In this document: positions 16,173 through 30,278 of the stretch, one piece after another
Position numbering within the stretch: the first letter of the stretch is position 1
Layout: each line of letters opens with the position of its first letter
From: a bacterium
GTDB taxonomy: Bacteria; Eisenbacteria; RBG-16-71-46
Reading direction: 5' to 3'
Length of the DNA: 30,591 nt
Assembly (NCBI GenBank): GCA_043779265.1
Contig: JAYWEM010000011.1
Coordinates: 1 to 30,591 of the forward strand
Notes under the pieces: model-generated
The model's input: only the letters and a program-made list of their open reading frames with translations
Databases searched by the model: none
What the model was told of the DNA's origin: nothing
Made by a program: the position numbers and the translations under genes

Positions 16173-17324
16173 ATGGCACGCACCCCTGCACCGCCGCTCG
16201 ACCACGCCGAGCTCCGCCGCTACGGCCGTCACGTCGTGATGCCCGAGATGGGTCTCGAGGGACAGCAGCGCTTGAAGCAGGGTCGCGTGCTGATGATCGG
16301 TGCGGGCGGCCTCGGCTCTCCCGCCGCGCTCTATCTCGCGGCCGCGGGCGTCGGCACGATCGGCATTGCCGACTTCGATGACGTGGAGGAGAGCAACCTG
16401 CAACGGCAGGTGGCACATGGGACATCGTGGATCGGTCGACCGAAGCTCGCATCCATCACGGCGCGCCTCACGGACCTGAATCCATTGGTGCGCGTCGTGC
16501 CGCATGCCGTCCGGATCGATCGGACGAATGCGCTCTCGATCCTCGCGGACTACGACGTCGTGCTCGATGGGGCGGATAACTTCGCGACCCGCTACCTCGT
16601 GAACGACGCGTGCGTGAAGCTCGGCAAGCCGGATGTGCATGGCAGCATCCTCCGATTCGAAGGGCAGGCGAGCGTGTTCGATGCCTCGCGAGGCCCCTGC
16701 TATCGATGTCTCTTCCCCGAACCGCCCCCAGCAGGCTCGGTGCCCTCGTGCGCCGAGGCGGGCGTGCTCGGCGTGCTCCCGGGCGTGATCGGCTCGATCA
16801 TGGCGACCGAGGCCATCAAGCATCTGCTGGGCGGTGAGGGCATGCTCGTCGGTCGGCTGCTTCTGTACGATGCGCTCGCGATGCGGTTCCGGGAGTTGAG
16901 CATCCGCCGGGACCCCGCGTGCCCGGCGTGCGGACCGGGTGGGCGAGAGGCCGAACTGCCGGACTACGAGGAGATCTGCGGCGTGAGCGAGAGCAAGACG
17001 ATTCTCGAGGACGAGATCACGGCCCGCGCGCTGTCCGACCGATTGGCGCGAGGGGAGCAGTTGGTGTTGCTCGACGTGCGCGAGCACGTCGAGTGGTCCA
17101 TCGGGCACCTTCCCGGCGCGACGCACGTGCCGCTGGGCGCACTCGCGACGCGCGTCGGGGAGCTCGACCCCACGGTGTCCACCATCGTCTACTGTCATCA
17201 CGGCGTGCGCAGTCGTCGCGCCATCACGTGGTTGGCGACACAGGGTTTCGCGCGACTCAAGAATCTGACCGGCGGCATCGATGCATGGTCCTCCGGAGTC
17301 GACCCCGAAGTGCCGCGCTACTGA
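16173..17324 (+). CDS. moeB: MoeB/ThiF adenylyltransferase fused to rhodanese (MoeZ/MoeBR type)
   Basis: RYGRH, IGAGGLGSP, DFDDVEESNLQRQ, DNFATRY, CYRC and CPAC Zn motifs, SCAEAGVLG; rhodanese LLDVRE...YCHHGVRS...GGIDAW. Confidence 0.92.
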   Translation: MARTPAPPLDHAELRRYGRHVVMPEMGLEGQQRLKQGRVLMIGAGGLGSPAALYLAAAGVGTIGIADFDDVEESNLQRQVAHGTSWIGRPKLASITARLTDLNPLVRVVPHAVRIDRTNALSILADYDVVLDGADNFATRYLVNDACVKLGKPDVHGSILRFEGQASVFDASRGPCYRCLFPEPPPAGSVPSCAEAGVLGVLPGVIGSIMATEAIKHLLGGEGMLVGRLLLYDALAMRFRELSIRRDPACPACGPGGREAELPDYEEICGVSESKTILEDEITARALSDRLARGEQLVLLDVREHVEWSIGHLPGATHVPLGALATRVGELDPTVSTIVYCHHGVRSRRAITWLATQGFARLKNLTGGIDAWSSGVDPEVPRY

Positions 17325-17349
17325 GTCCCCGCTCCGAGGAGACGTCTCG

Positions 17350-18810
17350 ATGGTCCACAACCTCTCCACGTTCTCGCGCTTGTCGGTTGCCGTGATCGCT
17401 GTCGCTGTGATCGCCGGGTGCGCGGTCAATCCGGTCACGGGAAAACGCGAACTCTCGCTCATCAGCGCGAACCAGGAACTCGCCATCGGCCGTGACGGAT
17501 ACGGCGCCACCGTGGCGGAGTTCGGACTCCTCGAGGATGCCTCGCTCTTCGCGTATGTCGACAGCATCGGGCAGGCGCTCGCGAAGCGTTCCGAACAGCC
17601 GGAGCTGGGCTGGCACTTCACCGTGCTCGACGACCCGGTCGTCAATGCCTTCGCGATGCCGGGTGGGTACATCTACATCACGCGCGGGATCCTCGCGCAT
17701 CTCCAGAGCGAGGCGCAGTTGGCGGGCGTGCTCGGCCACGAGATCGGCCATGTCACCGCGCGGCACGCGGCTCGCCAGATCACGCAGCAGCAATTGACCG
17801 GACTCGGAATCGGCATCGCGAGCATCGTCTCGGAGGATTTCCGGAGATACGGCGGCGCCGCGGAACAGGCGCTTGGACTCCTGCTGCTCAAGTACGGCCG
17901 TGACGACGAGAACCAGTCCGACCTGCTCGGAGTGCGCTATGCGACGGCGGCGAACTACGACCCACGTGAGATCCCGTCGACCTACGCGATGCTGCGCCGC
18001 ATCGGCGAGCGATCCGGTCAGCGACTGCCGTCGTTCCTCAGCACGCATCCCGATCCAGGCGATCGTGAGGTGCGTACCGCCGCGCTCGCGCGTGAGGCCG
18101 CCGCAGGCAAGACGGGTCTACTCATCCGCCAGCGGGCCTTCCTCGAGCGGCTGAAGGGCCTCGCCTATGGCGAGGACCCGCGCCAGGGCTACTTCGAGGA
18201 GTCCCGCTTCTTCCATCCGACGCTTGGCTTCGAGATGGGCTTCCCCGCGGGATGGCAGACCCAGAACTCGCGCGCCGCGGTCTCGGCGCAGTCGCAGGAT
18301 CGGAAGTCGATGATGCAGCTCTCACTCGCCACTGACGCTCGCGCGCTGTCTCCCGCGGAGTACGTCGCGGCGCTGCAGCGCGACGGCCGCATCGCCTCCG
18401 CACACGGCCGCTCCGAGACCATCGGTGGCTGGCCCGCCTGGACGGGTCGGCTGGCGCTGCCGGCGAAGGACGGCACGACGGTCACGATCCCCGCCGCCTT
18501 CGTGCGGCAGGCACCCGACCGACTCGTCCAGTTCATCGCGCGGGTCCCGGACGAGGCCGGGGAGCGGCAGATGCTGCAGGCGGTCCGATCGCTACGGCCA
18601 CTGATCGATCCAGCGCGGGCCCGGGCACTGCCCGCACGACTCGGGCTGGTGCCAGCCCCAGTGGCGGGGAGCTTCGAGAGCATCCACGGCCGCATCGGGG
18701 GGAACGGACTGACCCTGGCGGAGGCGGCGCTCCTCAATGGAGTGGAACCCGACGAGGGGGTCCAGGCGGGCGTCTGGATCAAGGTCGTGGAGCCCGCGAG
18801 ACTGCGCTGA
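17350..18810 (+). CDS. M48 family zinc metalloprotease lipoprotein with probable C-terminal LysM-like segment
   Basis: Lipobox IAGC followed by AVNPVTG; NAFAMPGG; HEIGH Zn motif; YGRDDENQSD; FLSTHP; C-terminal ALLNG...AGVWIKVV. SD GAGGAG precedes ATG 17350. Confidence 0.9.
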   Translation: MVHNLSTFSRLSVAVIAVAVIAGCAVNPVTGKRELSLISANQELAIGRDGYGATVAEFGLLEDASLFAYVDSIGQALAKRSEQPELGWHFTVLDDPVVNAFAMPGGYIYITRGILAHLQSEAQLAGVLGHEIGHVTARHAARQITQQQLTGLGIGIASIVSEDFRRYGGAAEQALGLLLLKYGRDDENQSDLLGVRYATAANYDPREIPSTYAMLRRIGERSGQRLPSFLSTHPDPGDREVRTAALAREAAAGKTGLLIRQRAFLERLKGLAYGEDPRQGYFEESRFFHPTLGFEMGFPAGWQTQNSRAAVSAQSQDRKSMMQLSLATDARALSPAEYVAALQRDGRIASAHGRSETIGGWPAWTGRLALPAKDGTTVTIPAAFVRQAPDRLVQFIARVPDEAGERQMLQAVRSLRPLIDPARARALPARLGLVPAPVAGSFESIHGRIGGNGLTLAEAALLNGVEPDEGVQAGVWIKVVEPARLR

Positions 18811-18932: not shown

Positions 18933-18957
18933 TAAGTCGTTGCCAAATAAATGGTTG
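18933..18957. promoter_or_regulatory. AT-rich patch with IHF-like site(s)
   Basis: TAAGTCGTTG reads CAACGACTTA on the minus strand (CAA-N4-TTR core of WATCAANNNNTTR). An adjacent degenerate inverted copy reads AAATAAATGGTTG. Located about 60 bp upstream of a -24/-12 element. Confidence 0.4.
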
Positions 18958-19013: not shown

Positions 19014-19030
19014 TCGGCACGTCCGGTGCA
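19014..19030 (+). promoter_or_regulatory. Putative sigma54 (RpoN) -24/-12 promoter
   Basis: TCGGCACGTCCGGTGCA versus consensus YTGGCACG-N4-TTGCW; GG(19016-17)-N10-GC(19028-29); 56 nt upstream of ATG 19087. Confidence 0.55.
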
Positions 19031-19086
19031 CTGGTATCCAGGTGATTCGACTGGGCGCTCGACGCCCCGACCCACTGGAGACCTCC

Positions 19087-19689
19087 ATGCACCGCCATCG
19101 GAAGTCGCTGCTTCGGACGTTGATCGCCCTCTCGGCTCTCACTCTGTGGGGTTGCTCGACCTCGACGCTCTCCATCCCCACGGCGCCCGAGAGTCTCGAA
19201 CGCTCCTCCGTCGCCAAGTGGGCTCCCGAGAGTGAGGGGATCCGCGCGGATACCACCCAGGGCCAGACCTCGACCACGCTGCCCACGCCTCGCGATACCG
19301 TCATCTCGGTGATCAGACCGGTCGCCGGAGAGCTGGGTGCGGTCCTCCAGGCGGGCTGTCTGCAGCTGCGCATCCCGCCCGGCGCGATCGCGGGCGAGGC
19401 CACGATCGAGATGAAGGTGCGTCCCAATGGGCGCGGTGTGGAACTCCACATCTACCCCGAGTCGCTCAACAACTTCCTCATCCCGATCGAGCTCCGCACC
19501 GACCTGAGCGCCATGCCCACCTCGGCGCGCACGAACGCCGGCTGGTTCTTCGTCGATGAGGGGACCGGGGATTGGCTCCTGCTGCCCGAATCGAGTGTGG
19601 ACCCGGTGACCGGGGTGCTCAGCGCGCCGCTCCATCACTTCTCGAAGTACGAAGTCGGCAATCGCAACCTGGGCAAGGCCGGATGGTGA
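19087..19689 (+). CDS. Hypothetical lipoprotein with ZU5-like beta domain and C-terminal HFS motif
   Basis: SD GGAG; signal MHRHRKSLLRTLIALSALTLWGC; S/T/P-rich linker; LQLRIPPGAI...F..PIEL...W...LHHFSKY pattern resembling ZU5-type domains. Domain call is by eye. Confidence 0.7.
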   Translation: MHRHRKSLLRTLIALSALTLWGCSTSTLSIPTAPESLERSSVAKWAPESEGIRADTTQGQTSTTLPTPRDTVISVIRPVAGELGAVLQAGCLQLRIPPGAIAGEATIEMKVRPNGRGVELHIYPESLNNFLIPIELRTDLSAMPTSARTNAGWFFVDEGTGDWLLLPESSVDPVTGVLSAPLHHFSKYEVGNRNLGKAGW

Positions 19690-19873: not shown

Positions 19874-19903
19874 TTGACACACTGCGGACCGCGCATCTAG
19901 GTT
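19874..19903 (+). promoter_or_regulatory. Putative sigma70 promoter of the act operon
   Basis: Perfect TTGACA(19874-19879), 18 nt, TAGGTT(19898-19903); ATG of actA 10 nt downstream, no SD. Confidence 0.6.
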
Positions 19904-19913
19904 GCCGCCCGTC

Positions 19914-20462
19914 ATGAAGACAAGGATAGCTGCTCTCATTGCGCTCACGACGATCGCCATGGCGGCCGTCGCGCTCTCCCAGTCCTACAAGTCCACGCGC
20001 AGCGTGGCTGTCGAGCTCGGGATGAAGAAAGCTCCTGTGCAGCCGATCGCGTACAGCCATGAGCTGCACGCCGGTCAGCTCCAGATGGACTGCAAGTACT
20101 GCCACTACAGCACCACCAAGTCGAAGTGGGCGAACATCCCCGCGGTCAGTACGTGCATGGGCTGTCACGCGTTCGTCGCGACGGACAAACCCGAGATCCA
20201 GAAGCTCGCGGGCTTCTTCGAGCGCGGCGAGCAGGTGCCGTGGGTCAAGGTGCACGAGATGCCCGACCACGTGAAGTTCAACCACAAGCGTCACGTGCTC
20301 GCCGGCGTCGAATGCCAGACCTGCCACGGGCCGATCGAGACCATGCCGGTCGTGTATCAGTACAGCTCGCTCAAGATGGGCTGGTGCATCGACTGCCACC
20401 GCAGCAATCTCGACCATCCGACGCATCCGACCAGCATGGACTGCCTGATCTGTCACCACTAG
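19914..20462 (+). CDS. actA: Alternative complex III pentaheme cytochrome c subunit
   Basis: N-terminal hydrophobic anchor; PVQPIAYSHELHAG; five CxxCH motifs (CKYCH, CMGCH, CQTCH, CIDCH, CLICH); PDHVKFNH; LKMGWC. Confidence 0.92.
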   Translation: MKTRIAALIALTTIAMAAVALSQSYKSTRSVAVELGMKKAPVQPIAYSHELHAGQLQMDCKYCHYSTTKSKWANIPAVSTCMGCHAFVATDKPEIQKLAGFFERGEQVPWVKVHEMPDHVKFNHKRHVLAGVECQTCHGPIETMPVVYQYSSLKMGWCIDCHRSNLDHPTHPTSMDCLICHH

Positions 20463-20470
20463 AGGAGCGC

Positions 20471-23400
20471 ATGTCGGAGCCGAACGTCTTCCCACGTCGC
20501 GATTTCCTCAAGCTCGTCGGCCTCGGTGTCGCCGGCGCGGCCGCCGGCTGCGCCAAGCCGCCCGCCGATAAGCTGCTGCCGTACCTGGTCGCCCCCGAGT
20601 CGATCCTCCCGGGCGTCGCGTACTGGTACAAGAGCACCTGCCGCGAATGTCCGGCCGGCTGCGGCGTGAAGGTGAAGGCGCGCGAGGGCCGCGCGATCAA
20701 GATCGAAGGGGACCCCGATTCGCCGATCAGTCGTGGCGGACTGTGCCCCCGTGGGCAGGCGGCGCTGCAGGGGCTCTACGATCCCGATCGCATCCAGTCG
20801 CCGATGGTCCGCGAGGGCGATGCGTGGAAGACGATCACCTGGGATGAGGCCATCGCTCTCGTGTCCGAGAAGCTCGGCGCGGCGAGCGGCTCCGTTGTGG
20901 CGCTGACCGGATTCGAGTCCGGTTCGCAGCGCGCACTGTCTGCTGGCTTCGCCGGCTTGTTGGGCGGTCGCCACGTGATGTGGGAGCCGTTCGGCTATGA
21001 AGCCGTTCGCGCTGCAGCCAAGCGCACGTTCGGGATCGATGCGGTGCCCGAGTACGACCTCGCGGCCGCCCGCTGCATCGTGTCGTTCGGCACCGACTTC
21101 CTCGAGACGTTCGCCGAGCCGACCGCGCAGGCGCGCGGGTTCGCCGCGATGCGCTCCAAGCGCGACGATGGTTTCGGCCACTTCATCGCCGTCGAACCGC
21201 GACTGTCATTGACGGGCGCGAACGCCGACGAGTGGGTGGCGGTCAAGCCGGGTGGCGAGATGGCACTGGCGCTCGGCATGGCCCACGTCATCGTCGCCGA
21301 GGGCCTCGGGCCCGCAGCCGATCGCGGTGCACTGGCCTCGGCGGTGAGCGCGTTCACGCCCGAGCAGGTCGCGGCTCAGACCGACGTCCCGGCCGAGAGC
21401 ATCCAGCGCCTCGCGCGCATGTTCGCCAAGCAGTCGCCGAGTCTCGCGATCGCCGGCGGCATCGCGGCACAGGGTTCGCAGGCGACCGCACTCGTCGCCG
21501 CGGTGCATCTGCTGAATCACGCGGCCGGCAACGTCGGACGCACGCTCAAGTTCGAGCGGACACTCGACTACAGCGGTCTCGCCAGTTTCGCGCAGCTCGG
21601 TGACCTCGTCGCCTCGATGAGCTCCGGTCAGGTGGGTGCGCTCGTCGTGAACGGTGCGAACCCCGTACACGCGACGCCCGCGTGGCTCGCTGTCGCCGAT
21701 GCCATGGGCAAGGTGCCGTTCAAGGTGGCTCTCGCGACGTCGCTCGATGAGACCGCGGCGCTGTGCGATGTCGTGCTTCCCGTCAGCCACGCGATCGAGT
21801 GCTTCGGTGATGCCGATCACGTTCGCGGCGTGTGGTCGCTGCAGCAGCCCGCGATGCGCGCGCTGCCGATGTTCGATGCCCGCCCGTCGGGTGACGCACT
21901 GATCGCGATCGCCAAGGGCGCCGGCAAGGCGTCGGACTGGCCGGACACGTTCCACGATTACCTCCGTTCGAGGTGGCAGTCGCAGTACGGGCGCTTCGGC
22001 GCCGGTCGTGACTTCGACACGTTCTGGAACGCGGCGCTCCAGTCGGGCGGTGTGCACGAGGCCGCCTCGGCGCAGTCCGTGCGCTGGTTGGGCGCCCCGT
22101 CTTTCGACGCTCCGGTGCGCATCGGCGAGGGCGACTTCGCGCTGGTGATCACGCCGTCGAACAACTTCTACGACGGTCGCGGAGCCAACAAGGGCTGGCT
22201 GCAGGAACTGCCCGACATGACCAGCAAGACGGTCTGGGGATCGTGGGTCGAGTTGCACCCCGAAACCGCCAAGGCGCTCGGCGTCTCGAATGGCGATGCC
22301 GTGAAGATCGAGACCGCAGCCGGTTCGGTCGAGGCGCCCGCCTATCTCTACGCCGGCATCCGCAAGGACACGGTCTCGATCGCGCTCGGCCAGGGCCATA
22401 CCGGCTATGGACGCTACGCGAAGGATCGCGGCGTCAACGCCTTCGCGCTCGTTCCGCAGTCGACCGACGCAGCTTCCGGCGCGCTCGCCTTCCAGTCGGC
22501 CAACGCCCGTCTGTCGCGCGGCACGGCGGCGATGCCGCTCTACGAGCAGCAGCACGAGAAGAATCAGCATGGCCGTGCGATCGCGCAGATCATCCCGGTC
22601 GCGGCCTTGATGGGCGGCGCGGCAACTGGCGGCGCGGCAACTGGCGGCGCGCATGGCGACACCGGACATGCCGCTCCGGATGCGCATGGTCACGAGGGCG
22701 CGGCGGCGGGCAAGCCCGCACGCGACTATCCGGGTCACTATCCGGCGGGCGAGGGCGTCCACCACGTGCACCCGTCGCAGACGCGCCCGGGCAAGTACAC
22801 CGAGCCGATGGCCCGTCCCGAGGACTACCGTGAGCCGGTGCACGCGATGTCGGCCTACGTCGGCAAGCATCAGGTCCGCAGCCCGCGGCGCAATCCTGTC
22901 GATCAGGGTGACTACAAGAACGCCAAGCACCGCTGGGCGATGTCGATCGACCTGAACACCTGCACCGGCTGTGGCGCCTGCGTCGTCGGCTGTAACGCCG
23001 AGAACAACATCCCGGTCGTTGGCCCCGAGCTCGTCAAGCGCGGGCGCGAGATGTCGTGGATCCGGATCGATCGCTTCGAGGAGAAGCTGGAGCCAGGCCA
23101 CAGCGACGTCCGCTTCGTGCCGATGATGTGTCAGCACTGTTCGGATGCGCCGTGCGAGATGGTGTGCCCGGTCTATGCCACGTATCACAATCCCGAGGGA
23201 CTGAACGCGCAGGTTTACAACCGCTGCGTCGGCACCCGGTATTGCTCGAACAACTGCCCGTACAAGGTGCGCTCGTTCAACTTCTTCGATTACTCGGCGC
23301 CCGAGAAGACCACGTTCGCGTTTCCGCAGCCGCTCCACTGGCAGCTGAATCCGGATGTGACGGTGCGCTCGAAGGGCGTCATGGAGAAGTGCACGATGTG

Positions 23401-23662
23401 CATCCAGCGCATCCTGGACGGCAAGGGGACGGCGAAGGACGAGTCGCGCGCGGTGCGTGACGGTGAGATCCAGACCGCCTGTTCACAGTCCTGTCCGACG
23501 CAGGCGATCACGTTCGGCGACCTCGCCGACCCCGAGAGCGCCGTGCACCTGAAGAGCTTCGGTGAGCGCAAGTACTGGGTGTTCGAGGAGCTCAACACCA
23601 AGCCGGGCGTCACGTACCTGCAGCGCATCCAGCGCGACACGATGAACGGGGGCCACGCGTGA
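20471..23662 (+). CDS. actB: Alternative complex III ActB: molybdopterin-oxidoreductase-like domain fused to Fe-S ferredoxin domain; Tat lipoprotein
   Basis: SD GAGGAG; Tat motif RRDFLK and lipobox AAGC; WLQELPD; Fe-S motifs CTGCGACVVGC, CQHCSDAPCEMVCP, CVGTRYCSNNCPY (3Fe-4S type), KCTMC, CSQSCP; NPDVTVRSKGVMEKC. Confidence 0.92.
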   Translation: MSEPNVFPRRDFLKLVGLGVAGAAAGCAKPPADKLLPYLVAPESILPGVAYWYKSTCRECPAGCGVKVKAREGRAIKIEGDPDSPISRGGLCPRGQAALQGLYDPDRIQSPMVREGDAWKTITWDEAIALVSEKLGAASGSVVALTGFESGSQRALSAGFAGLLGGRHVMWEPFGYEAVRAAAKRTFGIDAVPEYDLAAARCIVSFGTDFLETFAEPTAQARGFAAMRSKRDDGFGHFIAVEPRLSLTGANADEWVAVKPGGEMALALGMAHVIVAEGLGPAADRGALASAVSAFTPEQVAAQTDVPAESIQRLARMFAKQSPSLAIAGGIAAQGSQATALVAAVHLLNHAAGNVGRTLKFERTLDYSGLASFAQLGDLVASMSSGQVGALVVNGANPVHATPAWLAVADAMGKVPFKVALATSLDETAALCDVVLPVSHAIECFGDADHVRGVWSLQQPAMRALPMFDARPSGDALIAIAKGAGKASDWPDTFHDYLRSRWQSQYGRFGAGRDFDTFWNAALQSGGVHEAASAQSVRWLGAPSFDAPVRIGEGDFALVITPSNNFYDGRGANKGWLQELPDMTSKTVWGSWVELHPETAKALGVSNGDAVKIETAAGSVEAPAYLYAGIRKDTVSIALGQGHTGYGRYAKDRGVNAFALVPQSTDAASGALAFQSANARLSRGTAAMPLYEQQHEKNQHGRAIAQIIPVAALMGGAATGGAATGGAHGDTGHAAPDAHGHEGAAAGKPARDYPGHYPAGEGVHHVHPSQTRPGKYTEPMARPEDYREPVHAMSAYVGKHQVRSPRRNPVDQGDYKNAKHRWAMSIDLNTCTGCGACVVGCNAENNIPVVGPELVKRGREMSWIRIDRFEEKLEPGHSDVRFVPMMCQHCSDAPCEMVCPVYATYHNPEGLNAQVYNRCVGTRYCSNNCPYKVRSFNFFDYSAPEKTTFAFPQPLHWQLNPDVTVRSKGVMEKCTMCIQRILDGKGTAKDESRAVRDGEIQTACSQSCPTQAITFGDLADPESAVHLKSFGERKYWVFEELNTKPGVTYLQRIQRDTMNGGHA
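22613..22651 (+). repeat. 15-nt in-frame tandem repeat (2.6 copies) within actB
   Basis: GGCGGCGCGGCAACT twice plus GGCGGCGCG, encoding GGAAT-GGAAT-GGA. Confidence 0.9.
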
Positions 23663-25032
23663 GCGCCCCGAAGTCGAACGTCGCGGTGCTCGATCCGGCG
23701 GATCCGGAGAACAAGCCGATCACCCAGAAGTCGTTGAACGACGACGTCTTCAAGATGATCAGCAAGCCGGGCAAGCTGTGGTGGACGATCTTCCTCATCG
23801 ACCTGCTCATCCTCGGCATCGCGCTCGGATTCGTGCGCAACTTGATCGTCCACGGATGGGGCGTCTCGGGATTCAACCGGCCGGTCATGTGGGCCGTGGA
23901 CATCACCAACTTCGTCTTCTGGGTCGGCATCGCCCACTGCGGCACGCTGGTGTCCGCCGTGCTCTTCCTGTTCCGCTCCCACTTCCGCCGCGCGGTCTAC
24001 CGCGTCGCCGAGGCGATGACGGTGTTCGGGGTACTGACGGCTGCGATGTTCCCGGCCATCCACACCGGCCGTCCGTGGTTCGATTACTGGTTGTTCCCCT
24101 ATCCGAACCAGCGCCAGTTGTGGGTCAACTTCCGCTCCCCGCTCGAGTGGGACGTGTTCGCCGTCAACACCTACCTGACGGTCTCGAGCATCTTCTTCCT
24201 CGTCGGTCTCATCCCGGATGTCGCGGCGCTGCGTGACCGGACCAAGAATCCCATCGGCAAGCTGTTGACCACGGTGATCTCGTTCGGCTGGACCGGCGCG
24301 AACTACCAGTGGAAGCACTTCTACGGTGCCTACCTGTTCTTCGCCGCCCTCGCCACGCCACTCGTCTTCTCGGTGCACAGCGTCGTCTCGTGGGACTTCG
24401 CGATGGCCCAGACGCCGGGCTGGCACTCGACGCTGTTCGCGCCCTACTTCGTCGCCGGCGCGATCTTCTCCGGTGTCGCGATGGTCATCAATCTGCTGAT
24501 CCCGATCCGATCGGTGTTCAATCTCAAGCACATCGTGACGATGGATCACATGGAGAAGCTGGCCAAGCTCGTCCTGCTGACCTCCACCATGGTCGCCTAT
24601 TCGTACCTGACCGAGTTCTTCATGGCCTGGTACGGGCCGAGCAAGGCCGAGCGCGATGTGTTCGTGTTCCGCGCGTTCGGCCACTACTGGTGGGCGTTCT
24701 GGATCATGTTCTCGTGCAACGTGATCATCCCGTTGGCTCTGTGGTTCAAGCCCGTCCGGCGAAACATGCTCGCCATGTTCATTCTGTGCATCTTCGTGAA
24801 CATCGGCATGTGGTTCGAGCGATTCACGATCATCGTCACGTCGCTCACACGCTCGTTCAATCCGGCGAACTGGTTCTATTACAAGATGAGCATCACCGAA
24901 GTGGCACTCATCGTCGGATCCTTCGCCTGGTTCTTCATGTTCTTCCTCGTGTTCGTCCGCGCGCTCCCCGCGTTCTCGGTCGCCGAGATCAAGGAGACGC
25001 TGCCACCCCCGCGACGGAGGACGCACGGATGA
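23659..25032 (+). CDS. actC: Alternative complex III NrfD/PsrC-like quinol-binding membrane subunit
   Basis: ITNFVFWVGIAHCGTLVSA, AEAMT, HTGRPW, NFRSPLEWDVFAV, SVHSVVSWDF, PGWHST, GMWFERF; GTGA overlap with actB. Confidence 0.93.
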   Translation: MSAPKSNVAVLDPADPENKPITQKSLNDDVFKMISKPGKLWWTIFLIDLLILGIALGFVRNLIVHGWGVSGFNRPVMWAVDITNFVFWVGIAHCGTLVSAVLFLFRSHFRRAVYRVAEAMTVFGVLTAAMFPAIHTGRPWFDYWLFPYPNQRQLWVNFRSPLEWDVFAVNTYLTVSSIFFLVGLIPDVAALRDRTKNPIGKLLTTVISFGWTGANYQWKHFYGAYLFFAALATPLVFSVHSVVSWDFAMAQTPGWHSTLFAPYFVAGAIFSGVAMVINLLIPIRSVFNLKHIVTMDHMEKLAKLVLLTSTMVAYSYLTEFFMAWYGPSKAERDVFVFRAFGHYWWAFWIMFSCNVIIPLALWFKPVRRNMLAMFILCIFVNIGMWFERFTIIVTSLTRSFNPANWFYYKMSITEVALIVGSFAWFFMFFLVFVRALPAFSVAEIKETLPPPRRRTHG

Positions 25033-25577
25033 TCGACAAACTGCTGGCGCCACTCCTGAATCCCAAGCCGCCCAAGTTCCATGGCGTCATGGGCATCTAC
25101 TACTTCGTCGATGATGCGGCGAGTTCGGTCACGGCGCTCCGCAAGGCGGGGCACACGCGCCTCACCGTGTTCTCGCCGGTGCCGCACCACGACATCGAGC
25201 ATGCGCTCGAGCAGGGGCCATCGCTTGTGCGCTGGATCACGCTGGTCGGCGGCATCCTCGGTTGCATCGGTGGCTTCGCGCTGTGCATCTACACGGTGCA
25301 GGCATGGCCACTGGTCATCGGCGGCAAGGAGTTGGTCTCGATCCCCGGCTTCGTCGTGATCGGATACGAGTCGATGATCCTGATCGCCGGTCTCAGCAAC
25401 CTGCTCGGCATGCTGGCGCTGGCTCGACTGCCGCAGATCAAAGCCGTTGCGCCCTACGATCCGCGTTTCCAGGAGGACCGCATCGGCATCTGGGTGCCGT
25501 GTGCCCCGGATGTCGCGCCGCGCGTCGCCGAGATGTTGAAGGGCCACGAGGCCGAGGAGGTCCAGGTCCATGCCTAG
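25029..25577 (+). CDS. actD: Alternative complex III subunit D (DUF3341-like)
   Basis: FSPVPHH, two TM helices, WPLVIGGK, YE..IL, YDPRF..DRIG; ATGA overlap with actC at 25029. Confidence 0.88.
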   Translation: MIDKLLAPLLNPKPPKFHGVMGIYYFVDDAASSVTALRKAGHTRLTVFSPVPHHDIEHALEQGPSLVRWITLVGGILGCIGGFALCIYTVQAWPLVIGGKELVSIPGFVVIGYESMILIAGLSNLLGMLALARLPQIKAVAPYDPRFQEDRIGIWVPCAPDVAPRVAEMLKGHEAEEVQVHA

Positions 25578-26136
25578 ATGGTTCCTCGTCGGACTTCTCG
25601 CTCTGTGGTCGGCCTCGTTCGAGCAGGGCTGCAAGGACGCCCAGCGCTCCCTGACTCACTTCGAGTACTACCCGATCCGCGACATGCGCCGCAGCATCGT
25701 GCTCGACCCGCAGCAGGTCGACCCGGTCACCGGTCTGCCGACCAATGCGCGCGGGCCCGATTCGCTCTCGGTCCCCACGATCGGTCGAGATGTCTACTTC
25801 GCCGATCCGGCCCCCTATGAGATCGCGGGCGCCAAGCTGAAGAACCCGATCGCGACGAGCGCGGGCTCCGTCGCGCGTGGCGACTCGCTCTTCCGGACGA
25901 TCTGCTCCACTTGTCACGGTAGCTCGATGGCGGGGGATGGCCCGGTCGCGGCCAAGTTCATCCCGCCGCCCGACCTGCTCGCGGAGAACTCGCGCGGTCG
26001 CACGGACGGTTTCATCTACATGTACATCCGTCACGGCGGCGCGATCATGCCGTCCTACGGCAACGCGACGACACAGCAGGATGGCTGGGACCTCGTGAAC
26101 TACATCCGCCACATGCAGAAGACGAGTCCGCGATGA
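25570..26136 (+). CDS. actE: Alternative complex III monoheme cytochrome c subunit
   Basis: Probable lipoprotein signal ending GC; DM motif; KNPI...RG..LF...CSTCHG; I.HGGAIMPSYG; W.LVNYIR. Confidence 0.88.
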   Translation: MPRWFLVGLLALWSASFEQGCKDAQRSLTHFEYYPIRDMRRSIVLDPQQVDPVTGLPTNARGPDSLSVPTIGRDVYFADPAPYEIAGAKLKNPIATSAGSVARGDSLFRTICSTCHGSSMAGDGPVAAKFIPPPDLLAENSRGRTDGFIYMYIRHGGAIMPSYGNATTQQDGWDLVNYIRHMQKTSPR

Positions 26137-27389
26137 GTCACGAGGCGATTCTCCGCGACATCGCGAGCAAGCTGCCCGTCACGCCGAACGTTCGGAAGCG
26201 TCAGATCTGGATGGCCTGCCTGGCCATCGGCATCGCGGCGTTCGCGTTCCTGCTGTTCACCAATCCGCTGCGGGCCTGGGGTGCGTGGGCGATCAACACG
26301 CTCTACTTCCTCGGCATCTCGATGGCGGGTATCGCCATCGCCTCCGCCATCCGGTTGTCCAATGGGCGCTGGGGTGGGCCGATCATGCGCATCGGCGAGT
26401 CGCTCGCGTCGTATCTGCCGGCGGGCATCGCCACCATGGCGGTCCTGTTGATCGCCGGCATCTGGACCTATCTGCCGTGGACCACGCATGTCGAGCCGAG
26501 GCAGGCGGCATTCCTCAATGTGCCGTTCCTGTTCATCCGAACGCTCGGCGGGCTCGCGCTGTTCTGGTGGCTGTCGCGCAAGCTGGTCCGGGTCTCACTG
26601 CGTCGTGATCTCCATCTGCTCAAGCCCTACGTGGCCGACTCGCTCAAGGCCGACTACGAGCGCATCGCCGGGGGATGGAAGGGCGACGAGGCCGAGGCGG
26701 CGTCCTACCGGCACGAGACGGCGCATCTGTCGCCGCAGCTCGCACTGCTGTTCGTCGCGCTGTTCACCGTGTTCGGTTGGGACTTCATCATGGCGCTGAC
26801 CCCCAACTGGGTGAGCGGCCTGTTCGGCTGGTGGATCTACGCGGGTGCATTCATCAGCGGCATCGCCGTGATGGCGTTCCTCGCGACCCAGCTGCGCACC
26901 AAGTACCGGCTCGAGGCTTACATCACGTCGAACATGTTCTGGGATTGCGGCAAGATCCTGTTCGCATGGTGCATCTTCTGGGCCTATCTCTTCTGGTCGC
27001 AGTACTTGCCCATCTGGTACGCGAACATGCCGGAGGAGACGTGGTGGGTGTTCCTGCGCTTCGAGGAACCGTGGCGGGGGCTCGGATTCCTGGCCTTCAG
27101 CCTGATCTTCGTGATCCCGTTCTTCGGGATGCTCAACAAGACGTCGAAGACCCATCCGCTGCTGTTGATGACGTTCTCGCTCATCGTGCTGGTCGGGATC
27201 TGGGTCGAGCGCCACGTGCTGGTGATGCCGTCGCTCAATCCCGACATCGTCTGGGTGGGGCTGCCGGAGATCGGTGTCACACTGGGCTTCCTCGGTCTGT
27301 TCGGATGGCAGGTGCAGGGCTTCCTGACCAAGTACCCGTGCGTGAAGGTGGTCGACGCGTTAGAGGCGCCCGGAGGCCACGGGCACTGA
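26133..27389 (+). CDS. actF: Alternative complex III membrane subunit F
   Basis: Many TM segments; FGWDFIMALTPNWVSGLFG; D.GKILFA...FWAYLFWSQYLPIWYANMPEET; ATGA overlap with actE. Confidence 0.9.
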   Translation: MSHEAILRDIASKLPVTPNVRKRQIWMACLAIGIAAFAFLLFTNPLRAWGAWAINTLYFLGISMAGIAIASAIRLSNGRWGGPIMRIGESLASYLPAGIATMAVLLIAGIWTYLPWTTHVEPRQAAFLNVPFLFIRTLGGLALFWWLSRKLVRVSLRRDLHLLKPYVADSLKADYERIAGGWKGDEAEAASYRHETAHLSPQLALLFVALFTVFGWDFIMALTPNWVSGLFGWWIYAGAFISGIAVMAFLATQLRTKYRLEAYITSNMFWDCGKILFAWCIFWAYLFWSQYLPIWYANMPEETWWVFLRFEEPWRGLGFLAFSLIFVIPFFGMLNKTSKTHPLLLMTFSLIVLVGIWVERHVLVMPSLNPDIVWVGLPEIGVTLGFLGLFGWQVQGFLTKYPCVKVVDALEAPGGHGH

Positions 27390-27404: not shown

Positions 27405-27446
27405 GAGGCGCCCGGGCACTCCCTCCGAGGAGCGTCCGGGCGTCTC
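27405..27446 (+). terminator. Long hairpin between actF and the tRNA (terminator or processing signal)
   Basis: GAGGCGCCCGGGCACTCC pairs with GGAGCGTCCGGGCGTCTC (17 of 18 pairs, including 2 G-U), 6-nt loop, followed by weak TGCTT. Confidence 0.55.
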
Positions 27447-27464
27447 TGCTTGGGGATGGCCTGT

Positions 27465-27551
27465 GCCGGGATGGCGGAATGGTCAGACGCAGCGGACTTA
27501 AAATCCGCTGGGCGCAAGCCCGTGCAGGTTCGAGTCCTGCTCCCGGTACCA
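27465..27551 (+). tRNA. tRNA-Leu (anticodon TAA)
   Basis: Acceptor stem GCCGGGA/TCCCGGT, discriminator A and encoded CCA; D arm GGCGGAATGGTCAGACGC; anticodon stem GCGGA-CTTAAAA-TCCGC; long variable arm GGGC-GCAA-GCCC; T arm GCAGG-TTCGAGT-CCTGC. Confidence 0.97.
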
Positions 27552-28628: not shown

Positions 28629-30278
28629 TCAGATCTCCTTCCAGGCCAGAGTACGGGCCGACGGGATGTTCGCGTTGAAGCGGGTGGTCGTGGGGTAGTA
28701 AGGCGGGATCAGGCCGCGGCGGTCGTAACGGAAGTTACGCGCGAAGCCGGTCTGCAGCGCTCCCGAGCTGTTGAACGTGAAGAAGGCGCCGTAGTAGCTG
28801 GCGACCACGCCACCACGCAGATTGAACGTGCCGCGCGGCGAGCCCGAGTTGTAGCTGTCCACACTGAACTCACCCGAACTGCCGGTCGCCATCACGTACG
28901 CATCGAGATTGCAGTTGCTCGGAGCGCTTGTCCCGACGCGCACACTGCCGTTGGTCGAGTAGAGACCGAGCACGTTGTTCGCGGCATCGTAGTTCTGCAT
29001 CGTGACATCACGCTGGACCACGATGTCGCCGATCGTGGCGATGAGCAGCTTCGTCCCGGTGGCGATCGCGGGCGGCGGCAGCCCGCTGACACGATCCGGA
29101 CCGCGAAGGTCGCTGATGCCGCCCGTCACGTAGAGTACGCCTCGCGGCGTGCCCGTGTAAGCGGTCACCGAGCCGGAACCCACCTGGATCGTCGTCGTGT
29201 TCGTGGTTTGGTTGACGGTGATGGTCTTCGTCGTCGAGCCCTGCACCATGCGGTAGTACTGAACGCCCGTGGCCGTGTCCGCCCACATCCGGCACTGGTC
29301 GAGCGAGCCCTGGACGTAGAGACCTCCCGTCAGGTTGGTCCCCGAGGTTGGCAGGTAGATGCCGTTCGCCGGAGTTCCGCTGCCCGAGGCGCCGATGGCC
29401 GTGTTGATCTGCGAGTTCGTCGGGGCGGATCCGGTCGAGGACATTCCGAGCGCGGCCGCCTGCTGGTTATAGGAGTTGGTCGGCAGCGGCACGTTGGGCT
29501 GGTTGCGGTCGAACCCGCCGTAGAAGTTGGGCGCGTCGAGTGTGCCGTTGTTGTTGGCGTTAAGCGTCTTCACGGTGCCGCCGCCATTGTAGTAGTCCGC
29601 CGTCGAGCTGACGCTCGTCACGTAGTCCTGGAACGTCGGCTTGTAGGCGAAGCGGAACTTCGTGTTCGTGTGCACGTGGCCGTCGAACGTGACGCTCGAG
29701 GTGAACCAGATGGCCGAGCCGCTCGCCGAGTTATGCGTGTTGGTGAAGATCAGGTAGTTGGAGAAGTTGCCTCGCGTCGCGCTGACGCGCAGGATCCCCT
29801 GCGCTTGGACGTTGCGGCGGCCCGTGTTGCCGATCGCGCCGGTCGACTGGATCGTGTAGAGGTAGTTGTAGACCTGCTGCGAGTCGGCGATCGTGCTGTT
29901 CATCCAGCGGATGCTCCCTGTCGCATTGAACGGAGGGTTCGTCGAGCTCACGGTCAGCGGGGCGCCATTGAACAGGCTGTCGGGCTGCGGGATCACCGGC
30001 CCAGTGGCGCCGCCGTTGGTCCACTGCGTGATCTTGGTCGCCAGCTGCGTGCCGGCGTAGTTGGCCAGCTGCTGCTGCTGCGTGCGCACGCCGGCGTCGG
30101 CGGCATAGAGCGAAGCCTTCGCGGTCTGGACGTTCGAGGAGACCGCCCGCTCGCCGATCGTCGTGCTCATGAACGTCACGACCATCACGCTGGAGAGGAG
30201 CACGACCAACACCGCCGCGACGAGCGCGATGCCGCGTTCGCTTCGAGTGGCCGAGAGAGGATCGGGGATGCGGGTCAT
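28629..30278 (-). CDS. PilX-like type IV minor pilin with large C-terminal beta-rich domain
   Basis: Class III signal ERG|IALVAAVLVVLLSS without Glu5; SLYAADAGV (PilX N-terminal motif); FDGHVHTN; C-terminal GF.RNFRYDRR...PPYYP...WKEI. SD AGGAG. Confidence 0.8.
   Translation of the reverse strand: MTRIPDPLSATRSERGIALVAAVLVVLLSSVMVVTFMSTTIGERAVSSNVQTAKASLYAADAGVRTQQQQLANYAGTQLATKITQWTNGGATGPVIPQPDSLFNGAPLTVSSTNPPFNATGSIRWMNSTIADSQQVYNYLYTIQSTGAIGNTGRRNVQAQGILRVSATRGNFSNYLIFTNTHNSASGSAIWFTSSVTFDGHVHTNTKFRFAYKPTFQDYVTSVSSTADYYNGGGTVKTLNANNNGTLDAPNFYGGFDRNQPNVPLPTNSYNQQAAALGMSSTGSAPTNSQINTAIGASGSGTPANGIYLPTSGTNLTGGLYVQGSLDQCRMWADTATGVQYYRMVQGSTTKTITVNQTTNTTTIQVGSGSVTAYTGTPRGVLYVTGGISDLRGPDRVSGLPPPAIATGTKLLIATIGDIVVQRDVTMQNYDAANNVLGLYSTNGSVRVGTSAPSNCNLDAYVMATGSSGEFSVDSYNSGSPRGTFNLRGGVVASYYGAFFTFNSSGALQTGFARNFRYDRRGLIPPYYPTTTRFNANIPSARTLAWKEI

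Follow-up and report, generated by a model that had tools for sequence, protein, structure and literature searches.

The window (the whole stretch of 30,591 nucleotides that was analysed) encodes a 200-residue lipoprotein whose last residues, GKAGW, are the same as those of a 16-residue micro-peptide encoded on another contig of the genome in front of a MASE9-HD-GYP gene, and relatives of the lipoprotein recurrently lie beside genes for MASE9 membrane sensors. On balance, we consider it somewhat probable that the lipoprotein, which is predicted to cut itself, is a carrier of the MASE9 peptide signal, that is, a caged and inducible source of the same signal as that of the micro-ORF. An initial annotation of this DNA had described the protein as a stand-alone module. 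This view had to be given up, as the family is tied genetically to MASE9 sensors and has its C-terminus in common with the micro-peptide. New with respect to that annotation are the [KR]AGW nature of the tail, the micro-ORF with the same end and the pairing with MASE9. For MASE9, a widespread sensor domain, a candidate ligand is a peptide of 5 to 16 residues ending in [KR]AGW, which is cheap to make. The occurrence of two unrelated carriers of one C-terminus in one genome permits a direct test of the idea.

Table 1. Features of the lipoprotein gene and its surroundings in the window
Feature	Position	Strand	Basis
ZU5/GAIN-fold lipoprotein gene, 200 aa	19087..19689	+	ORF, homologs, AlphaFold model
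Lipoprotein signal peptide ending in lipobox LWG-C (Cys23)	19087..19155	+	sequence; Cys in 129/150 alignment rows; lipidation inferred
S/T/P-rich linker, residues 24-69	19156..19293	+	pLDDT 53-65; poorly conserved
ZU5/GAIN-B-like beta-sandwich, residues ~70-192	19294..19662	+	AlphaFold, structural matches
His184-Phe185-Ser186, predicted self-cleavage F|S	19636..19644	+	model, conservation; cleavage inferred from MAIN, PIDD, Nup98
C-terminal fragment, 15 residues: last strand and free end	19642..19686	+	model, sequence
C-terminal GKAGW and stop	19672..19689	+	sequence; residues 198-200 pLDDT <50
Ribosome-binding site GGAG	19077..19080	+	sequence
Sigma-54-type -24/-12 promoter site, 10/11 consensus positions	19015..19029	+	motif scoring; assumed consensus
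Presumed IHF-like element, ten bases identical upstream of the C175 paralog	18933..18942	+	12/63 regions vs 7/130 controls
M48 metallopeptidase gene, upstream	17281..18810	+	conserved neighbour; context only
Multiheme cytochrome c gene, downstream	19902..20462	+	conserved neighbour

The lipoprotein family, its fold and its tail

The 200-residue reading frame, the LWGC lipobox (encoded at 19144-19155) and the position of HFS 15 residues from the C-terminus all agreed with the initial annotation. A profile search yielded 2524 cluster representatives at E 0.001 or better, the best 150 of which are 78-392 residues long, and related matches were labelled Candidatus Eisenbacteria. For motif statistics, we used 257 family proteins, the best-ranked matches (the best 120 of 126 and the best 150 of 2524); a lipobox-like pattern was present in 221 of these, suggesting lipidation. 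Within a 150-genome sample of the phylum plus the genome of the window, 90 of 151 genomes had a family match (184 matches), and one paralog was found in the same genome, on contig C175. A metagenome scan with the single lipoprotein as query gave no match; with close relatives as query, five loci were detected. Searches of Pfam, NCBIfam and PDB sequences assigned no family to the lipoprotein. Pfam ZU5 (PF00791) matched neither it nor 14 close homologs; the tandem homologs P0249 and P0257 passed the cut-off.

An AlphaFold model from a 150-row alignment had pLDDT 94-98 over residues ~70-190, with strands at 73-80 and 85-89. The domain thus begins near residue 70 and not at LQLRIPPGAI, where its start had been placed originally. 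Among structural matches of the domain model, ankyrin ZU5 domains ranked best (Z 11.6, 10.6 and 10.1; best rmsd 2.7 with 119 aligned), GAIN domains of CD97 (Z 9.7), CELSR1 and BAI3 were found at Z 9.0-9.7 and UNC5b at Z 8.6, and Nup98 was low (Z 4.5). Foldseek gave the same entries on top (best E 1.3e-3). The ZU5 assignment, previously made by eye, was therefore upheld, and by modelled fold and motif the lipoprotein is a member of the ZU5/GAIN superfamily.

In the model, HFS (184-186) forms the turn between strands 177-182 and 187-192, i.e., before the last strand. Residue conservation was assessed in alignment A2 (150 rows): H184 and F185 were each kept in 149 rows, S186 in 150 and Y188 in 148, so the site first noticed in a single sequence is almost invariant. 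In addition, HF[ST] was found no more than 45 residues from the end in 252 of the 257 best-ranked proteins. By analogy with YfkN, PIDD and Nup98, the lipoprotein likely cuts itself at F185|S186. In Bacillus subtilis YfkN, Edman sequencing located the cut at F|S within the HFS turn, and fragments of MAIN domains stay associated after cleavage (bioRxiv 10.64898/2026.05.12.724683). Self-cleavage at HF|S is likewise described for PIDD and Nup98, and continued association of the fragments for FIIND (PMC3210808). One carrier beside a MASE9 kinase has kept the W-tail and lost HFS, implying that self-cleavage is not always needed.

The tail itself was conserved at its very end. W200 was kept in 144 and G199 in 139 of the 150 rows of alignment A2, and the residues between the last strand and the motif varied in number and kind. 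We found that 235 of the 257 best-ranked proteins ended in [KR][ASGV]GW or [KR]ASW, 7 more had the motif followed by an extension and 15 had no motif; because the ranking profile contains the tail, these shares are an upper estimate for the wider family. Within this limit, the conservation of the GKAGW tail held. The motif lay 10-18 residues from the cut in 233 proteins, and this distance was 7-8 residues at some genome loci. Residues 198-200 had pLDDT below 50, which places the motif outside the confident fold; together with the variable spacing, this indicates that the fold, as modelled, does not depend on the motif. The same genomes also encode look-alike domains that fold in its absence. 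In the model, the last strand of the domain (187-192) is made up of the first ~7 tail residues, with 8 residues beyond it, so the cut alone would not free a peptide. Motif codons varied synonymously in 71 ZU5 genes and 30 micro-ORFs and all three stop codons were used, indicating that selection acts on the peptide. Among 2139 coding-like ORF ends of the genome, only the two ZU5 genes ended in [KR][ASG][GS]W.

Several variant forms were observed. Tandem two-domain proteins of ~300 residues (L129-L132; P0124, P0127, P0131, P0249 and P0257) retain HFS and the tail in their second domain alone, and four tandem two-domain ZU5 genes directly precede a stand-alone MASE9 gene. A separate clade (L110-L112) consists of ZU5-like lipoproteins without HFS and without the motif, whose genes keep the sigma-54 site and come after a gene for an 1100-residue protein with no Pfam match. 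In the literature covered, we found no description of this ZU5 family, of MASE9 peptides or of ZU5-MASE9 pairing; the text and supplement of Liao et al. 2014 and bioRxiv supplements, where such proteins may appear, lay outside that coverage.

Promoter, MASE9 neighbours and the micro-peptide

Control by sigma-54, proposed in the initial annotation, is supported by a predicted -24/-12 site scored against a consensus that we assumed. Sites of the form GG-N10-GC with at least 9 of 11 positions were present in 54 of 63 ZU5 upstream regions and in 16 of 130 regions of other genes at the same loci; at 10 or more positions, the numbers were 35 of 63 and 8 of 130. These counts were restricted to ZU5 genes with an upstream gap of at least 100 nt, and the score thresholds were of our choosing. 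The genome encodes rpoN (E 3.8e-62). Where MASE9 came first in a pair, a sigma-54 site (score 9 or higher) stood in front of MASE9 in 6 of 7 stand-alone cases, and such a site preceded the micro-ORF in only 1 of 29 cases. The ten-base element farther upstream (Table 1) was taken by us to be IHF-like.

The gene order M48 peptidase - ZU5 - multiheme cytochrome was recurrent. Of 10 orthologous loci, 7 had a MASE9 gene between ZU5 and the multiheme cytochrome; the other 3 had none there, and neither had the window. The one long locus of the closest subfamily (L286) also had no MASE9 neighbour. The link of the window gene to MASE9 thus comes from family evidence and the common tail. A ThiF/MoeB-like gene precedes the M48 peptidase gene (16173-18810), and the two are fused in some relatives (894 residues in L035). 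The multiheme cytochrome gene is presumably the first gene of an alternative complex III-type operon; the respiratory operon occupies 19902-27389, of which the first gene was scanned, and a probable tRNA-Leu was seen by eye after it, near 27430-27520.

The C175 paralog ends 5 nt before the gene for a 264-residue membrane protein that scored as MASE9 (PF20972, 28.3 bits; cut-off 24.3). From the 184 matches, we selected 80 surrounding regions, those of the best-scoring matches and of distant families; 78 had a called ZU5 gene, giving 83 genes. MASE9 adjoined 33 of these 83, in 32 loci and six families, and the next-commonest neighbour cluster reached at most 12 loci. The ZU5 gene came first in 23 pairs and MASE9 in 10, and some pairs overlapped (gap -4). 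Of 32 adjacent MASE9 genes, 30 were stand-alone without an output domain and 2 were fused to a histidine kinase; four other members of the MASE9 cluster, joined only through kinase domains, were left out of the pair count. The remaining 50 ZU5 genes had no MASE9 neighbour, and the motif was intact in 41 of them. With 2-3 MASE9 genes per genome, adjacency by chance should, by our own estimate, be well under 1%. On a quick tree, the pairing label needed at least five changes on well-supported branches, in the context of trees (quick or FastTree) that were poorly resolved.

Viewed from the other side, 48 of the 64 stand-alone MASE9 genes among the 74 matches listed had a ZU5 gene within 1.3 kb, a count that overstates the association because the MASE9 profile was built from ZU5-adjacent genes, which favours pairing, and because kin are not independent. 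Inspection of the 16 without a listed ZU5 neighbour revealed one intact and two broken ones. MASE9 was present in 89 of 90 ZU5-positive genomes but also in 137 of all 151, making it weak as co-occurrence evidence. A search of plasmids for MASE9 gave no match. A clade of three MASE9 kinases (support 98) was paired in all three cases with ZU5-like lipoproteins, which ended in GTADW, GTGDW and TGGWD; one of these lipoproteins was ZU5-like by profile (95.5%) and had a Gly/Ser/Ala stretch in place of HFS. Overall, 2 of 19 fused MASE9 kinases had a W-ended neighbour.

Some further features of these loci were noted. A ZU5-like lipoprotein gene without HFS and with a GTGDW end lies directly before a MASE9 kinase gene (L148:2293-2943). 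Broken or shortened ZU5 genes lie by intact stand-alone MASE9 genes in L109, L124 and L126, with the C-terminal motif still readable. An Ala-Ala end was present in 18 of 33 MASE9 proteins (L035-L114) and in 9 of 417 neighbouring proteins, and also in many MASE9 kinases; we assume a resemblance to ClpXP-type degradation tags. A DUF1611 gene and an enolase-superfamily (dipeptide epimerase-like) gene, a peptide-modifying pair, precede MASE9 kinases in L138-L140, L149, L150 and L154. In L117, L134 and L137, MASE9 without a ZU5 neighbour lies beside POT/OPT transporters, a family-5 binding protein or an Opp ATPase, which may be due to chance (3 of 40 loci).

On contig C65, a 16-codon micro-ORF with an AGGAGG site, which reads MELLLDMIELFGKAGW, is located in front of a MASE9-HD-GYP gene (L155:4878-4928; G000:C65, ~28877-28927, + strand) and has the same GKAGW end as the lipoprotein and its C175 paralog. 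The MASE9 N-terminus of the encoded protein scored 100.8 bits with our own profile and had no Pfam match. Among 79 micro-ORFs with AGGAGG in the genome, this was the only one ending in [KR][ASG][GS]W. Three products of the genome thus carry the motif, of which two are encoded next to MASE9. A micro-ORF of 12-17 codons ending in [KR]AGW was detected at all 30 of the best MASE9-HD-GYP loci, which belong to one family and include our genome. At 20 more distant loci, 11 micro-ORFs ended in [KR][ASG]GW, 3 had other Trp ends and 6 loci had none; at two of these 20 loci, the motif occurs in two or three copies. In a cross-phylum scan, MASE9 was present at 29 of 80 HD-GYP loci; 8 of the 29 (Eisenbacteria, Actinomycetota, Bacillota and Chloroflexota) had a micro-ORF whose product was hydrophobic and Gly-rich and aromatic at its end, and no micro-ORF was found at the other 21, including all 11 from Streptomyces and two that lacked upstream sequence. 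Five genomes reached via other loci had no KAGW-type match. NCBIfam had no model for 11 micro-peptides tested, with two weak Phr matches (E ~0.1).

We also compared tail and micro-peptide variants by eye: they matched in three lineages (PGKAGW; no Gly before RAGW; Thr or another non-Gly residue) and mismatched in at least four genomes, so that this comparison carries no evidential weight. Tandem Trp-motif micro-ORFs, in two or three copies as in multi-copy pheromone precursors, were observed at L186:1121-1231, L189:2362-2511 and L195. The C65 micro-ORF lies between MASE9-HD-GYP and a conserved hypothetical gene of 250-300 codons (no Pfam or NCBIfam match), an order kept across the phylum. In family f7, which has most ZU5-MASE9 pairs, both MASE9-HD-GYP loci examined (L194 and L200) were without the micro-ORF and without the upstream hypothetical gene.

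Proposed signalling and alternative explanations

The predicted structure of MASE9 (pLDDT 88.9) suggests a ligand-binding S-component fold. Its top 14 structural matches were all ECF S-components, at Z-scores (10.2-15.3) near the level that helical bundles can reach by chance, but from one coherent family; the best had Z 15.3 and rmsd 3.0 with 162 aligned, and Foldseek agreed with weak E-values. The predicted pocket contains an invariant Asn, invariant aromatic residues and the invariant TM1 Glu, a position occupied by E or D in 143 of 152 cases. The corresponding loops of S-components close the pocket on its outer side. In MASE9, the loop after helix 3 has ~3 K/R and almost no acidic residues and is, by parity, on the output-domain (cytoplasmic) side. 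Judging from K/R counts and the cytoplasmic output domain, the pocket may therefore face the cytoplasm, away from the exported lipoprotein. Conserved MASE9 residues are also mainly in the half assigned to the cytoplasm. A cytoplasmic pocket would suit the unexported acidic 16-mer, and the lipoprotein peptide would need release and import. Alternatively, the tail could bind elsewhere on MASE9.

In the mechanism we propose, the lipoprotein would be exported and lipidated and would cut itself at F185|S186. The last 15 residues would then stay in place as the final strand, to be freed by unfolding or degradation of the domain. A MASE9 membrane sensor would be the likely target of the freed peptide ending in GKAGW, and presumably also of the 16-residue micro-peptide, with an influence on c-di-GMP breakdown (HD-GYP) or kinase output. 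MASE9 is not encoded next to the window copy, whose targets would therefore be in trans, namely the C65 MASE9-HD-GYP protein or the C175 stand-alone MASE9. Stand-alone MASE9, having no output domain, would most likely be a peptide sink or co-receptor. With a pocket that apparently opens to the cytoplasm, uptake of the peptide may be necessary, as for Phr peptides; Opp-type binding proteins are encoded, the genome having three family-5 peptide-binding proteins. Some observations speak against this mechanism: the lack of a MASE9 neighbour for the window gene and for 50 of 83 ZU5 genes, the apparent position of the pocket away from an exported lipoprotein, the carrier without HFS, the 16 of 64 stand-alone MASE9 genes with no listed ZU5 neighbour, the small share of fused kinases with a W-ended neighbour, and the 21 of 29 cross-phylum loci at which no micro-ORF was found. 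A broader and more tentative reading, which we regard as a serious possibility, is a bacterial split form of adhesion-GPCR signalling. A sigma-54-controlled lipoprotein would keep a peptide agonist caged within its self-cleaved GAIN-like domain, of which the agonist forms the last strand, the freed [KR]AGW would be the missing MASE9 ligand, interchangeable with the micro-peptide, and envelope damage or force would be converted to c-di-GMP and two-component output.

It is also conceivable, but unlikely in our judgement, that nothing is released and that the whole or nicked lipoprotein serves as an accessory subunit of MASE9, to whose outer face it offers its C-terminal [KR]AGW, in analogy to the micro-peptide on MASE9-HD-GYP. 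Such a tethered partner would fit the persisting association of MAIN and FIIND fragments (bioRxiv 10.64898/2026.05.12.724683; PMC3210808), the 8 residues past the last strand in the window tail and the HFS-less carrier that keeps its W-tail beside a MASE9 kinase, and the overlapping, coupled gene pairs suit a fixed complex. However, 7-residue tails put the motif inside the last-strand span, where it could not reach a partner, and HFS is almost invariant. In addition, tandem motif copies in micro-ORFs suggest processing to short units, and the conserved MASE9 residues lie mainly on what appears to be the wrong side of the membrane for such contact. A third factor, such as a tail-specific protease, a transporter or a sorting enzyme, might read the motif of both lipoprotein and micro-peptide, with MASE9 only co-regulated. 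This would account for the 41 ZU5 genes that keep the motif without a MASE9 neighbour, and peptidase genes do recur nearby (M48 upstream here; M20 and aspartyl protease downstream in others), but we think it rather improbable given that no other neighbour cluster approaches the 32 loci of MASE9, that the tail variant follows the MASE9 clade and that two of only three motif-bearing products in the genome are beside MASE9 genes.

The S-component fold and the prevalence of adjacent MASE9 genes without an output domain (30 of 32) would also be expected if stand-alone MASE9 were an S-component-like importer of the released peptide instead of a receptor or sink. We consider this decidedly improbable, as stand-alone MASE9s group with kinase-fused ones (support 99), the single EcfT of the genome is beside a CbiM-like gene on another contig and the topology deduced for MASE9 is inverted relative to transport S-components. 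SecM and MifM, which are export monitors, provide a model for a signal acting in cis on translation: [KR]AGW-stop would stall or guide the ribosome and gate a downstream MASE9, with the lipoprotein as export monitor. Micro-ORFs are always upstream of MASE9-HD-GYP, ZU5 comes first in most pairs (23 of 33) and RAGW may be likened, on our assumption, to the RAGP arrest motif. Against this, the ZU5 gene follows MASE9 in 10 of 33 pairs, seven proteins have the motif and then an extension, internal repeats of it occur in some micro-ORFs, Lys prevails over Arg, no Pro follows and all three stop codons occur, so that such a role seems very improbable. Hardly any credence can be given to a purely structural tail (last strand and cap) of an ordinary surface lipoprotein: residues 187-192 do form the last strand, but the motif is modelled with low confidence at variable spacing and recurs on an unrelated 16-mer, the family is paired with MASE9, and look-alike domains do without it.

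Relation to known systems

In the GAIN domain of adhesion GPCRs, the strand after the cut (Stachel) is caged in the fold and is a signal once freed. The lipoprotein is similar in that a caged post-cut strand is the proposed signal, and its domain matches GAIN domains in structure (Z 9.0-9.7). However, the peptide comes from a separate gene and is not fused to a receptor, its conserved part is the C-terminal end and not the new N-terminus, and the proposed receptor has an S-component fold and not a 7TM fold. Phr/Rap systems and enterococcal lipoprotein-derived pheromones also have an exported precursor, a short mature peptide and possible re-import by Opp. Those systems depend on host proteases, their receptors are cytoplasmic RRNPP proteins and the signal sequence is the source of the enterococcal peptides, whereas here the peptide would be the C-terminus of a predicted self-cleaving domain and its partner a membrane sensor. 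Phr/RRNPP signalling as such was considered and rejected: the recurrent neighbour is MASE9, and a TPR gene was near only 2 of 80 loci.

For MASE9 (PF20972), the accessible text of Galperin and Chou (bioRxiv 10.1101/2021.11.05.467447) describes the HD-GYP fusion, names no ligand and suggests binding within the membrane; stand-alone or kinase-fused forms and a peptide or lipoprotein partner are not named in that text. 5TMR histidine kinases (PMC11109136) are, like MASE9, sensors of S-component fold with an extra N-terminal helix, and neither MASE9 nor HD-GYP is mentioned in the part of that article available. MASE9 differs from 5TMR in its proposed ligand, a peptide, and in an additional helix at the C-terminus, which, judged by parity and K/R counts, would invert the core in the membrane.

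The MAIN domains described by Brogan and Rudner, including that of B. subtilis YfkN, are alike in being a beta-sandwich with an HFS turn (bioRxiv 10.64898/2026.05.12.724683). Compared with these, the lipoprotein would be anchored by an N-terminal lipid, has no ectodomain, and its free piece would be short, C-terminal and linked to a sensor gene. Classification as a YfkN-type MAIN protein was rejected: such proteins have a C-terminal envelope anchor and an N-terminal adhesion or enzyme ectodomain, and the lipoprotein has an N-terminal lipobox and a free C-terminus. If our proposal is correct, the lipoprotein would be a microbial GAIN/ZU5 domain whose C-terminal fragment signals, a point listed as open in the same preprint.

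The predicted fold and the HF|S motif are also shared with PIDD, FIIND of NLRP1/CARD8 and Nup98 (PMC3210808) and with bacterial toxin ZU5 domains (PMC3482391); unlike these, the lipoprotein has no UPA or death domain, RHS filament or enzyme after its site. Assignment to ZU5-bearing polymorphic toxins, which combine an N-terminal ZU5 with a large SpvB/RHS protein, was likewise rejected, in view of the stop codon 15 residues past the site and the small size of the best 150 of 2524 matches. One distant match (L290) was of polymorphic-toxin type.
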